Shown here: positions 32,477 through 47,494 of the stretch, piece by piece
Position numbering within the stretch: position 1 is the stretch's first letter
Layout of the letters: each line of letters starts with the position of its first letter
Assembly (NCBI RefSeq): GCF_006345805.1
Contig: NC_042998.1
Span: 201,314,001 to 201,378,000 of the forward strand
DNA length: 64,000 nucleotides
From: Octopus sinensis
Lineage: Eukaryota
Reading direction: 5' to 3'
Translations under genes and position numbers: made by a program
Notes under the pieces: generated by a model
Seen by the model: only the letters and a program-made list of their open reading frames with translations
Told to the model about the DNA's origin: nothing
The model's database searches: none

Positions 32477-32669
32477 TAGGTCGCGTAGATATTATAGGCT
32501 TCGAAATACAACTGATACCTCGCTATCCAATCTCCTTTGTTATAGATTCAGTGTAAAATTTCGTGACAGATACAACAAATATATTTTTGAATATTTATTT
32601 ATTTCTACTGTTGTATATTTTAGACTGAGGAATCATGTACATTATTTAGATTAGACGTTTCGGCTAATA

Positions 32670-32768
32670 AGTTAGTTAGTTAGTTAGTTTATTTTTGGCT
32701 CAAAAAGCAAAAAGCAAAAAGCAAGGCCATGTAGGGGACATGGGGTTATCTACAGGGTGGTGTTCATA
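32670..32768 (-). mobile_element. CR1 3' terminus with (TAAC)n tail
   Basis: Homologous to 2852-2940. Confidence 0.85.
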
Positions 32769-32774
32769 AATAAA

Positions 32775-32890
32775 GGGTTCGGTTCGAAATTCCATTAGGA
32801 TATCTGATGAAGGTTGGCGAGTATATCAGCCAAAACGGTGTGAAAATAGCAAACCAGGTGAGGACACTTATCCGTCAATGTAAATATTAT
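32775..32890 (+). mobile_element. Penelope-type terminal repeat with decayed hammerhead (CTGATGA intact, GAAA mutated)
   Basis: CTGATGA at 32804-32810, stem II GGTTG/CAGCC; homologous to 35510-35620. Confidence 0.7.
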
Positions 32891-33692: not shown

Positions 33693-35489
33693 ATTTAGAA
33701 ATTTTGTTACAAGTTCAGCAATTTCGTGAATGGTGGTAATCGAATACCTCGACCCCTGTGCTCAACTTATTTTATCCATCCTGAAAGGAAGAAATGTAAG
33801 TTGACGAGAGTGGAATTTGTCTCAGAACAAGAAAACGGATGAAATGTCACGAAATATTTTGCCCGGAGCGGTAACTATGCTGCCAGCAGAATAAAATCTA
33901 ATAATACCAACAAATATCTCATTGTTATAGAGGTACATTATCGTCTGTTAGCAATGATTTACCGATCAGGATCTAATAACGTACCTGGCGGTCGGTCCCT
34001 GACAGCACTAACTGACCTATAGCTCTAAAATCCTCATTAATGTTTGTTGCCATTCTCCGACTTGTCAATCTGTAATTTTCATCCCCATAAATTGTCCCTT
34101 AGTAATTCTCTGATGCTTTGTAGGAGCCATTTTTAAAACATTTCTTTTCTGTTATCTGACATTGATGGCATTATACCCATTATATTATGCATTTGACATT
34201 CTTCTACTTCAAGCTTTTACATTATGGTCTAAAACCTGGTCACAGCAAAATAAAGTGGCTATTTGTACTTTGCAGATTTTCATTGCATTCTACTTTGCTT
34301 CATGCATTTGGTAGATTCTTGTGACTTGTACTACAAGGGAAAATTATTTCATTTATATTTTGAGTTGTCGAAGGAACTCAATATGGTGATATATCTTGAA
34401 GTAAATCTGTTACTTTCACTTACTCCGTGCATTAGTGAAGGGATTTCTCATATGTTATATAGCTTTAGTTTGACATTCAGTTTCCCATTATGAGATTAGG
34501 TGCTGTATTTTTTTAATATGTTCTTTTCTATTCTTTGTCTTCTTTCACAAATCTCCGTTTCCTTAATGTCGTTTTGTATTATGCGCCATCTGAAGATACA
34601 AAGGAATTTACATTTATTTCTTCAATTTTAACGGTTTGATGATTCCTATTTATTTTAAACTATCATATCTCAAATGCAATAGCAAATATGTAATAATGAT
34701 CTTCGAGTTATTGACAGCTGCAGCAACACTAATTTCTTCAGAAATATATGAGTACCTATCTTGCATTGCTCCTACAGTCGGTATCAAGTTGTGCCAAAAT
34801 CTAATTAAGACTAAGGCAGCTAGAAAGCAAGCTGTCTTAAATTCTGTATGAAACTATAACATTTCTTCTTAATCAGTTTCTTATACTTCCATATGGCAGT
34901 TTACATAGTTTCTGTATTCCTAACCATTTGTAAGAACGTTTTTCGTCTAATTCTCTTATTATTTCTTATCTAAAATGAGGTTAGTATTTGTAATTAATTT
35001 TACTCTCTTTAACTTTGAAATACTTTCATACCACATTTCACGTGAATTTCTTTAGAAGTTCGTATTTAAGACGTTCTCTTAACTTGTAAGAAATTATCGT
35101 GCGTTGGATAAATGCTTTAGCGATCATGGAGTGGGAAAATTTTCTCCAATCACATTGAGCTGATCGAAATCTTTTCATTGAAATTTTGTATACGTAAATT
35201 TTATGAACGTTGTCGAATAGACAGCATGGCTTCACACACATCATGTCCCTAATACTGTCGCTCTCTACGGTGCCAAACACGTCTCCAACAATGTCACGCT
35301 GACTTTCTCTGAGAATGAACATTTATGCATTATTGTACAACGACTACTCAGTCATACTATAATTCAGTGCCTACATAGATTCTAGATCGAAGAAGTGGAA
35401 AATATATACTATCACAATGAACTGATGATCCAAAAGAGTCTGACGTTCCAAAATTGTTTTATAATTTCCTGTTATTCCTTGAGCTATTA

Positions 35490-35658
35490 AAAATACCTTA
35501 GAAATGAGAAACCAGCTTCAAAATTTCCACAAGACGACTGATGAAGGCTGAGGGTATATCAGCGAAAAAGTTGTATGAACAACAAACAAGATGAGGACAA
35601 ATATCCGTCAAATATACATAACGTACATAATTCCTGATCTCTTAAATATAGAACTGTA
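35490..35658 (+). mobile_element. Penelope-type terminal repeat with hammerhead motif
   Basis: CTGATGA 35538-35544, stem II GCTG/CAGC, GAAA 35564-35567; stem III region mutated. Confidence 0.75.
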
Positions 35659-35724
35659 ATATATATATTGAGAGCGGTCAGCTAAAAGTTTTTGAGCATG
35701 TTGATGTCGACATAAGTTCCTTGA

Positions 35725-35807
35725 TTTTCCTGATGAGAAATCTGCATAATGTACTCCTTATTCCTTTGGAATTAGGAATATGCAGCCTTCGAAACATATG
35801 TCGAGAA
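35725..35807 (+). ncRNA. Type I hammerhead ribozyme, canonical core, predicted GUC cleavage after 35802
   Basis: Stem I TTTTC/GAGAA; CTGATGA 35730-35736; stem II GAA..CTGCATA/TATGCAG..TTC; GAAA 35791-35794; palindromic stem III ACATATGT; GTC triplet; AATAAA at 35806-35811. Confidence 0.85.
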
Positions 35808-35874
35808 TAAAGGATATTTGTTAACTAGTCGTTCAACTCCATTCTTTCATATACTTACAATTTTAATATATATA

Positions 35875-36010
35875 TATGACAGATATTTGTCCTCATCTTG
35901 TTTGTTGTTCACACAACGTTTCCGCTGATATACTCTCCAGCCTCCACCAGTCATCTTGGGGAAAGTTTGAACCTGGTTTCTCATTCCTAAGGTATTTTTC
36001 GATGTTCCTG
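35875..36010 (-). mobile_element. Inverted second copy of the 35490 terminal repeat (core decayed to CTGGTGG, GAAACGTTGTGT retained)
   Basis: Reverse-complement homology to 35490-35615. Confidence 0.8.
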
Positions 36011-36028
36011 TTATTGTTGTTATTATTA

Positions 36029-36059
<31 letters not shown>

Positions 36060-36081
36060 GTTGTTGTTGTTGTTGTTGTTG

Positions 36082-36152
<71 letters not shown>

Positions 36153-36158
36153 GTTATT

Positions 36159-36274
36159 GTCACTGCTTCGAATCGAACTTGGGATCTTAGGGTTAGTAGC
36201 TCGCGTCATATAGCGTAGTCGTTAAGAACTCGGGCTAGTAACCCCAGGATTCCGAGTCCGATTTCCGACAGTGA

Positions 36275-36280
<6 letters not shown>
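36159..36280. mobile_element. Head-to-head pair of short tRNA-like SINEs with (TAA)n tails
   Basis: Plus copy TAGCGTAGTCGTTAAG...CTAGTAA...GAGTCCGATTTCC...CAGTGAC; minus copy ...CTACTAACCC...AAGTTCGATTC...CAGTGAC. Confidence 0.7.
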
Positions 36281-36306
<26 letters not shown>

Positions 36307-36307
<1 letters not shown>

Positions 36308-36845
36308 GAGGCTCTCATGGCTCCTGATCTTAACTGATTGGAAGTGTTATCATGTACATTGTTTTTTTGTCTTGGTATAAAAGATGGGCTACAGCAAATA
36401 TTCTGCTCAATACCACAGATTTGCTTGTCACTTGTTTGACCTTAACCAGGCGAGCATGTTCCTTAGTGACTGACGATATGTGCATCTCTAATCACGAGCA
36501 GAAGTAGTGCGGGAGTATGATAGCAATGTGTTGGGAGGAATTCTTTGGGGTGTGAATAATTCACCTCTGGAAACATGGGTGTTTCATTCAACATCCTTAA
36601 ACAATCCTTATTCAGGGACCTTTTGAGCGGGATGGGTTACTCGACCAGAAGAAATTTCTAACAGGGCTTCACGTGCAAGGTCATGTCCTGTTTATCTTGA
36701 TATGAGACCACCATGTCGCGCACATATGGTTGTGATGCATGTGCCTGGTGTACCCTTATCAGACGGGTAGTCATGATGTGTATACTGGCCTTCGTATATT
36801 TTACCCCAGTGTCACTTTGATGGCATGCTCCGCTCTCTCACTGAA
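36307..36845 (+). mobile_element. ~550-bp non-coding interspersed element inserted in (TAA)n
   Basis: Closely similar copy at 46889-47441; fragments at ~18010 and ~51050. Confidence 0.88.
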
Positions 36846-37639: not shown

Positions 37640-38392
37640 CGAGGGGTGTATGAATAGTTTTGAGCCTAACCTAGAAATTACGCTGCTAGGTAGCTGAAAC
37701 AATTTTTTCTTGTAAGTACAGTCTTTTCGGAGTATTCTTGCTCATTTTCATGAGTCTGACATTTTAAGTTTTTTGTTGTTGCAGATTTTTGAATAAATAA
37801 GTGTCGAGGTTACAAGGAAAATGGAGAAAATTAAGTATCGTGCTGTCTTAAAGTACCTTCATTTGAAAGGCATGATTCCACCAGAAATCCATGAAGATAT
37901 GGTGAGAACCTTAACAGAAAATGCTCCTTCGTACGCAACAGTCAAACGCTGGGTAAATGAAAACCAGTGTAGCAGGGTGAGTGTGAAAGATGATCCCAGA
38001 CCAGGGAGACCTCCAACTTCAACCATCGAATATAACATTGACCTTGCTCTTGGTATGATAATGCAAGATCGTCGAATATCATGTTACCAGATAGCTGAGA
38101 GACTGGGCATCTCGACTGAAAGAGCAGAGAACATTGTGACAAAAGAACTTGGGTTCTCAAAGGTTTCTGCAAGGTGGGTCTCTCGCCTTTTGAATCCAAA
38201 CAGAAACGCACCAGGTGGACTTTGTCCACGAGAAATCTGGAACTGTTTGAAGCCGAGGAAGATAATTTTCTTGTTCGTTTCATTATTATGGACGAAAGCT
38301 GGGTTCAAAGAACAATCAGAGCAGTGGAAGCACATATCATTTTCTACCCCAAAGAAGGCCAGGGTCATTCCTTCAGCTGGCAAGGTCATGAT
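37640..38392 (+). mobile_element. Mariner transposon 5' half (irritans/Himar-like), 3'-truncated
   Basis: TA-CGAGGGGTG... left end inserted in a TA tract; transposase follows. Confidence 0.9.
37821..38392 (+). pseudogene. Mariner transposase pseudogene (frameshifted, truncated after the first catalytic Asp)
   Basis: DDPRPGRP, KVSARWVSRLL (WVPR.L), then in a shifted frame FLVRFIIMDESWV, then PKKARVIPSAGKVM. Confidence 0.9.
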
Positions 38393-38601
38393 GCCACCGA
38401 CCTGGCTAAGCAGAAGTAAGAGTGAGAGAAAGTTGCGTCAAAAGAGTACAGCGGGGTTCGCCACCATCCCCTGCCGGAGCCTCGTGGAGCTATAGATTGT
38501 TTTTGCTCAATAAACATGCACAACGCCCGTTTTGAGAATCGAAACCGCGATTCTACAACCGCGAGACCGCTGCCCTACCTACTGGGCCATTGCGCCTCCA
38601 T
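38393..38601 (-). mobile_element. SINE family C 5' half abutting the truncated mariner
   Basis: Reverse-complement homology to 25598-25790. Confidence 0.88.
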
Positions 38602-46889: not shown

Positions 46890-47439
46890 GCCCTGATGCA
46901 GTACCAGGCAGAGGCTCTCATGGCTTCTGATCTTAACTGATTGGAAGTGTCATCATGTACATTGTTTTTTCTTGGTATAAAAGATGGGCTACAGCAAATA
47001 TTCTGCTCAATACCACAGATTTGCTTGTCAGTTGTTTGACCATAACCAGTTGAGCATGCCCCTTAGTGGCTGACGATATGTGCATCTCTGATCACGAGCA
47101 GAAGTAGTGGGGGAGCATCATAGCCATGTGTTGAGAAGGATTCTTTGGGGTTTGAATAATTCACCTCTGGAAACAGGTGTTTCGTTCAACGTCCTTAAAC
47201 AACCCTTATTCAGGGACCTTTTGAGCGGGATGGGTTACTCGATCTGAAGAAAATTCTAACTGGGCTCCACCTGCAAGGTCATGTGCTGTTTATCTTGATA
47301 TGAGATCACCATGTCGCGCACATATGGTTGTGATGCATGTGCCTGGTGTACCCTTATCAGACGGATAGTCATGATGGGTATACTGGGCTTCGTATATTTT
47401 ACCCCAGTGTCACTTTGATGGCATGCTCTGCTCGCTCAC

Positions 47440-47441
<2 letters not shown>
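46889..47441 (+). mobile_element. Full-length copy of the (TAA)n-inserted non-coding element
   Basis: Flanked by (TAA)n on both sides; homologous to 36307. Confidence 0.88.

Positions 47442-47494
<53 letters not shown>

Follow-up and report, generated by a model that had tools for sequence, protein, structure and literature searches.

A TA-centred nest of probable Penelope-type repeats in Octopus sinensis with one credible hammerhead motif and two decayed ones

Layout of the locus

The locus lies in a microsatellite-rich stretch of animal-type DNA (64 kb in full and about 35% GC, referred to below as the window) and consists of a central unit of about 197 bp that is set between two inverted copies of another repeat (Table 1). 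The repeat families of the central unit and of the flanks are referred to as family C and family F, respectively, and both repeats look like ordinary debris of Penelope-type mobile elements. An earlier note on this DNA, made from the letters alone, had described the central unit as flanked by TA, and a (TA)n run was indeed found on either side of it. The same note had described the flanks as inverted and arranged tail to tail, which holds, whereas the right copy proved to be confined to 35877–36006, with about 48 nt of the 3′ end of the left copy being absent from it. The left flank was also found at this very locus in contigs from two public sequencing runs (i.e., X1 and X2).

Table 1. Annotated features of the locus (positions in the window).
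Feature	Position	Strand	Remarks
11-mer	35466–35476	+	recurs at 36005–36015; just two occurrences in the window
Left flank, family F copy	35490–35658	+	5′-truncated and decayed, with full 3′ tail
Decayed minimal hammerhead of the left flank	35534–35576	+	first core half intact (35538–35544)
Left (TA)n run	35659–35668	strand-less	
Central unit, solo copy of high-copy family C	35669–35865	+	one copy in the window
Type I hammerhead	35712–35822	+	found by descriptor, Rfam and folding; predicted cut after C35802
Right (TA)n run	35866–35877	strand-less	
Right flank, decayed family F copy	35877–36006	–	5′ end complete, without 3′ tail; core CTGGTGG
(AAT/AAC)n tract, 5′ of the right flank	36010–36139	–	tract common at this place in family F
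5′-truncated tRNA-like head, candidate SINE head	36136–36206	–	same strand as the right flank
Second tRNA-like head	36205–36298	+	head to head with the first, then (AAT)n

The 11-mer that precedes the left flank may have arisen by duplication of the target site, or else as a piece of the right copy's 5′ junction in inverted orientation. As a whole, the earlier observation is partly confirmed by the analyses below, which leave a single credible hammerhead, along with two dead ones, in a nest of repeats of the Penelope-like element (PLE) type around a TA run.

The central hammerhead and its family

The core of the central motif comprises CTGATGA (35730–35736), the G10.1–C11.1 pair (35737/35790), and GAAA (35791–35794), and is followed by a palindromic helix III (35794–35801; i.e., 2 bp and a palindromic tetraloop) and a GUC cleavage site, in which C17 corresponds to position 35802. 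Stem I is formed by 35719–35729 and 35803–35813, with a 6-bp inner part and one G·A mismatch, while the helix II domain takes up 54 bases (35737–35790) that are arranged as 3 bp, a 2×2 loop, 7 bp, and then an inner branch. Every position of the conserved core (C3–A9, G12–A15.1, U16.1, and H17, plus the G10.1–C11.1 pair) is present, and the predicted fold has three helices, with helix I open-ended and stems I and II at pairing probabilities of 0.4–0.9. This confirms the earlier description of a hammerhead with a full core, a GUC site, a palindromic helix III, and a long helix II. Two finer points of that description had to be revised, however. The proposed inner TTCCT/AGGAA hairpin occurred in none of the four structures within 1.5 kcal/mol (an ATTCC/GGAAT pairing under a 4-bp helix being predicted instead), and the AATAAA word that was said to come right after stem I is rather located at 35806–35811, within the 3′ strand of stem I. 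A role of this word as poly(A) signal was rejected, since it is part of stem I, occurs at 1.3 per kb in the window, and contains a position (A35807) that varies in the family.

When scanned with our own descriptor, the 64 kb yielded a single match, corresponding to the central hammerhead, as compared to 0.1 loose and 0 strict matches per window in 60 shuffled windows. The expectation that this motif would be the best ribozyme candidate in the window was therefore borne out. Moreover, the fold of the 111-nt hammerhead region had a z-score of –3.16, with 2 of 200 shuffles equalling it. Rfam model RF00163 (Hammerhead_1) matched with 29.1 bits (E = 9e-6) in a 131-base scan only, and this score stays below the gathering score of 34 bits, with the 50-base insert in helix II falling outside the model. 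Rfam gave no match at gathering score in the whole window, and the hammerhead was not among the 10 weak matches from an E-value scan of 1.5 kb.

As to its likely behaviour, the monomer is predicted to pair helix III with a probability of 0.01–0.02, and to adopt the active fold at 2.2 kcal/mol over its minimum free energy structure (4.4 kcal/mol in the 199-nt unit). Unconstrained co-folding of two central monomers, on the other hand, predicted a double-hammerhead topology (–61.4 vs. 2 × –27 kcal/mol, i.e., 7.4 kcal/mol below two monomers). Fast hammerhead cleavage needs a contact between stems I and II (PMC3088659). Since helix II is an extended 54-base stem here, there is no obvious partner for the usual contact between loops I and II. 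A terminal loop II is absent near the core. A 2×2 internal loop located 3 bp from the core and the G·A mismatch in stem I are present, but variants within the family close this 2×2 loop. Two reports on related motifs describe an axolotl hammerhead with a 2-bp helix III, of which the monomer was cut for 22% in an hour and the dimer better (PMC7229834), and a set of predicted Xenopus dimers, eight out of nine of which did not cleave (bioRxiv 10.64898/2026.07.22.740005). The central motif is a real type I hammerhead and a plausible ribozyme, and we would, by a narrow margin, expect its cleavage to be detectable in vitro at 10 mM Mg. A perfect 10-base palindrome (35704–35713), which has 7 bases in common with the cut-site sequence and varies in the family, is situated upstream of stem I.

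The evidence on the repeat families derives from contigs of 4 of the 24 listed public runs, with an 80% cut-off for matches. Part of the central unit was present in 21 of these 24 runs (spanning three organism labels and eight studies), with the best share amounting to 0.56 of 16 sampled words. Compared to unique DNA upstream (contig depth of 47–63), the summed contig depth over the central unit was 2,567–20,932 times as high in those bins that were computed from 35710 to 35863, and just 80–117 times as high at 35666–35687. Such summed depth is no copy number, and shows a large family that is under-represented at the 5′ end of this particular copy. Being thousands of times that of unique DNA, it does away with the possibility, raised by the earlier note, of a single-copy locus without a family. 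The roughly 100-fold drop in depth toward the 5′ end is what 5′ truncation would give, and could equally stem from subfamily divergence past the 80% cut-off. No second copy of the central unit was present in the 64-kb window, and no end-to-start joint was found for it among the joints listed (15 of 20), in a test that is weakened by the shortness of the contigs. As family C ends are absent among the 24 of 808 loose ends listed, TA targeting by this family rests on the one copy described here.

Motifs of the families gave no matches in collections of genome contigs, viral contigs, and plasmids. Three metagenome loci (L001–L003) that hold both core words were discarded as relatives, as their likeness to the unit does not extend beyond 14 bases. 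These loci are near-identical to each other, have 48–50% GC and the same palindromic helix III, and are situated amid dispersed repeats of 100–200 bp.

Among the variants listed (40 of 67 rows for the whole stretch), 14 are located in the unit and none in the core, which is not significant (p = 0.22) and leaves purifying selection on the hammerhead core unsupported. Four of these 14 variants restore pairs that are absent here, two turn a pair into G–U, four break a pair, and four affect unpaired positions. The central copy itself carries a letter other than that of the DNA majority at 3 of these 14 places, two of which (35815 and 35816) break outer pairs of stem I. At 35740, where helix II has an A opposite a C, a G accounted for 0.75–0.78 of the depth in runs X3 and X5 (guessed to be RNA) vs. 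0.05–0.12 in the DNA runs, and this excess may reflect either a subfamily difference or A-to-I editing. Both X3 and X5 also cover the two families. Given that their RNA nature is a guess and that no listed run is recorded as RNA, neither this cover nor their depth ratios nor the G excess are counted toward or against expression or editing.

The flanking copies and the tRNA-like heads

The two flanks are 88.7% identical over 133 nt (with 12 of 121 columns being different) and belong to a family that reaches depths of 34,000–73,000 times that of unique DNA. The majority letters of family F specify a stem I of 4–5 bp, an A inserted between A9 and G10.1, and a palindromic helix III that lacks a loop. 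These are the marks of the minimal hammerheads of PLE pLTRs, of which the family majority is a textbook example. Two further PLE traits, i.e., an optional tail of 30–40 bp and copies that are inverted head to head, also recur in this family. Its 3′ loose ends fall into two groups (35620–35631 and 35656–35658) that are 25–38 nt apart, and 4 joints among the 15 of 20 listed run from antisense to sense at single-copy depth, corresponding to head-to-head inversions elsewhere. An older head-to-head pair of family F copies is located at 32590–32890, with about 100 bp of another repeat in between, and consists of one copy with a tail and an internal deletion and one copy without a tail.

In both copies that flank the central unit, however, the core is no longer intact and stem I is broken. 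The left copy departs from the family majority at G12 (which is out of register), C11.1, C15.2, and stem I, and the right copy at A6 and A9 (both being G), C11.1, and stem I. Since both flanks are decayed and neither fits the descriptor, the earlier count of three ribozyme motifs is reduced to one plausible ribozyme. In total, the flanks are off their family majority at about 10–12 places each, vs. 3 of the 14 places listed for the central copy, a comparison from which relative ages follow only roughly, with 40 of 67 variant rows listed.

Six minority letters are common to both flanks, and just 5 of 200,000 simulated independent pairs overlapped to that extent in a simulation that assumes independent uniform mutation and ignores hot spots and subfamilies. 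One of these six letters is also present in the older copy at 32800. In the right copy, the 11-mer that occurs in the window at 35466 and 36005 only (Table 1) forms the boundary with the (AAT)n tract; before the left copy, it lies inverted relative to the element. The six common minority letters and this 11-base junction repeat indicate that the flanks descend from one source, be it one event, one rare subfamily, or the copying of one flank from the other. A single source for the flanks in turn implies about two events at the locus rather than three independent hits. The suggestion that the same TA site had been targeted repeatedly is therefore upheld in part: the 3′ ends of both flanks adjoin TA runs with the central unit in between, whereas the flanks, given their six letters, were not independent arrivals.

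On the strand of the right flank, a tRNA-like head is followed by (AAT)n and subsequently by the family F body. This head and the oppositely oriented second head are 77–78% alike and can form an inverted hairpin of –76 kcal/mol. A B-box-like word and other box-like words were recognised by eye in the tRNA-like head, while ARAGORN called no tRNA and Rfam gave no tRNA match in it. As many as 151 (X1) and 167 (X2) contigs leave the F body at 36006 into (ATT)n, and depth does not fall toward the 5′ end of this body. A single copy shows head and body linked, as compared to 151 and 167 contigs that show the (AAT)n tract. This tract and the depth pattern fit a tRNA-headed SINE with a Penelope-type tail. 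We tentatively consider, while deeming it somewhat doubtful, that family F is the 3′ half of a very abundant, Penelope-mobilised SINE with a Pol III (tRNA) head, an (AAT)n linker, and a Penelope-derived tail that holds the minimal hammerhead, rather than a bare pLTR fragment, and that family C is a hammerhead variant in which thousands of copies retain the helix II of 54 bases and remain able to cleave.

No description of a Penelope-driven SINE or of cephalopod hammerhead families was encountered in the literature searched, although the families may be catalogued in Repbase or Dfam. Two publications do report 235 hammerhead matches in the giant squid (PMC6962438) and list both Penelope elements and tRNA SINEs in octopus (PMC8967140).

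The (AAT)n tracts attract other insertions as well, e.g., a 537-bp repeat at 36309–36845 that is also present at 46912–47443 (92.6% alike), has (AAT)n on both sides, and is probably an AAT-targeting element. Further downstream, 37797–38495 contains an open frame of 232 aa, which by eye resembles a fragment of a mariner transposase.

Probable assembly of the nest and its relation to known systems

The locus was probably built by PLE machinery, as a TA microsatellite in which non-coding repeats became nested by retro-insertion. The PLE reverse transcriptase/endonuclease would have primed reverse transcription at AT-rich nicks. In a first step, two sister F copies from one slightly mutated source would have landed tail to tail in the TA run, on opposite strands and with the optional PLE tail in one of them only. 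Family F would then be pLTR-like, with a minimal hammerhead that depends on dimer formation, and both copies have since lost catalytic bases. In a second step, the TA run would have been entered by a copy of family C, a separate repeat of high copy number in which the type I hammerhead is canonical and helix II is long. We lean toward this entry having come after that of the F pair, since the central copy is nearer to its family majority. In a plus-strand transcript, standard hammerhead chemistry would have the central motif cleave after C35802, self-cleavage after H17 being well established for hammerheads. Such cutting would probably be weak in the motif alone and better when a second family C RNA completes a double hammerhead via the palindromic helix III, as its predicted fold suggests. 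The ribozyme would have served RNA processing of the parent element, and no sign of a host function was found for the central copy. The inward-facing 3′ ends of the F copies count against this explanation, as outward-facing 3′ ends are the normal result of a single PLE insertion. A link to a PLE ORF (RT/GIY-YIG) was searched for in the nearby frame at 34490–35400 (minus strand) only, without credible match: this broken frame looked GIY-YIG-like by eye, but was rejected after yielding no Pfam family in three frames and one spurious FG-GAP protein.

The retrozyme pattern may also be held against a PLE origin, since retrozymes, too, combine a canonical hammerhead with a unit of roughly 200 bp (PMC7229834). 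More specifically, the central unit could be a lone monomer, or part of one, from a non-LTR retrozyme, tandem transcripts of which self-cleave to unit length, circularise, and are re-inserted by PLE proteins, so that the two readings differ in RNA intermediate and tandem source and not in ancestry. The type I motif with its 2-bp helix III and palindromic tetraloop, the non-coding unit of about 197 bp (within the 150–450 bp typical of retrozymes with a canonical type I hammerhead), the very many copies, and the favourable predicted fold of the dimer all agree with this, and dispersed pLTR-derived monomers are common according to a recent preprint (bioRxiv 10.64898/2026.07.22.740005). Nevertheless, we consider a retrozyme origin unlikely, given the one copy in the window, the steep drop in depth toward the 5′ end, and the lack of end-to-start joints among the 15 of 20 listed. 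Moreover, the pairing of the outer arms of the unit does not surpass that of shuffles (375 of 500), and the unit as a circle is not unusually structured (z = –1.05, with 18 of 150 shuffles being as good), leaving a rod-like circle unsupported.

Alternatively, 35477–36004 might have arrived beside an older (AAT)n as one composite insertion, with inverted F arms around family C and an 11-bp target-site duplication. The 11-mer does form a direct repeat that brackets this unit and is confined in the window to 35466 and 36005, and the arms do share their six minority letters. However, the ends of the arms are asymmetric (with 13 unmatched bases on the left), depth at 35666–35687 is more than 250-fold under that of the adjacent arm bin, which indicates that the composite was not amplified, and no piece bridging the junction between arm and centre occurred among the 32 of 33,971 listed. 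Likewise, none of the pieces listed spans the whole locus. A composite is rated as quite improbable, given that amplification of the junctions is lacking and that, beyond 36006, the usual (ATT)n tract of the family goes on in phase. More improbable still, to the point of being far-fetched, is that the nest was co-opted, with a read-through transcript forming a hairpin of about 130 bp of which the hammerhead opens the loop, thereby feeding RNA editing or small RNAs, or cutting a host transcript. The arm duplex is predicted at –162 kcal/mol, and stem I still forms within the 521 nt (P of 0.63–0.65 vs. 0.40 in the unit alone). Against this, the changes at 35815 and 35816 break outer stem I pairs, no promoter, gene context, or conservation supports it, and the geometry follows from insertions alone.

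The proposed assembly by PLE machinery can be set against known systems. In the minimal hammerheads of metazoan PLEs, stem I is short, one additional base is placed between positions 9 and 10.1, and the palindromic helix III has no loop; opposite-strand pairs that are 100–700 bp apart have been reported as well (PMC4209133, Cervera and de la Peña 2014). Family F shares this signature, as well as the mostly solo, decayed copies and the opposite-strand pairs, but has a helix II of 5 bp vs. 7–8 bp in the Schistosoma PLE families. It further deviates in that its body commonly follows (AAT)n, that the right copy has a tRNA-like head, and that no PLE ORF was linked to it here. The PLE tail is described as optional and 30–40 bp long (PMC8557442; PMC11167929), and PLEs as preferring AT-rich nicks (PMC11167929). 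PLEs of the Hydra clade, which is reported in molluscs and other phyla, have (TA)n as their insertion site and hammerheads of the canonical type (PMC8557442). Family C resembles these elements in its canonical hammerhead, TA flanks, and apparent 5′ truncation, while no RT/EN sequence was tied to it here. It most likely corresponds to the 3′ end (pLTR) of a PLE with TA as its target, or else to a non-autonomous element derived from such a PLE.

The central unit is also similar to the non-LTR retrozymes of animals, with which it shares the full core, an inner stem I of 6 bp, a helix III of 2 bp with a palindromic tetraloop, a short and low-GC non-coding unit, and very many copies, although its helix II is a 54-base stem vs. 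about 4 bp and a loop in retrozymes (PMC7229834; bioRxiv 10.64898/2026.07.22.740005; RF00163). As for the right flank, the SINE-like Sm-alpha and Sj-alpha hammerheads of Schistosoma (PMC6765202) similarly combine a Pol III-type head and a hammerhead in one short repeat. In contrast to these tandem, ribozyme-liberated repeats, the right flank would have a PLE minimal motif in a 3′ body with PLE-like ends, and a head link that is taken from one copy.

Families C and F are new members of the Penelope-associated hammerhead repeats, and their addition to a class that is known by the thousands in animal genomes is of modest weight. If the long helix II supports fast cleavage, it would constitute a new substitute for the loop I–II contact. 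If family F is a Penelope-driven, tRNA-headed SINE, it would widen the range of SINE partners and offer a natural system for studying what PLE hammerheads do.

Finally, the single-copy DNA at 35422–35448, i.e., upstream of the left flank, contains a CTGATGA word that is followed 13 bases on by GACGTT. Although it does not match the descriptor, this stretch is possibly a fourth and more decayed hammerhead core.
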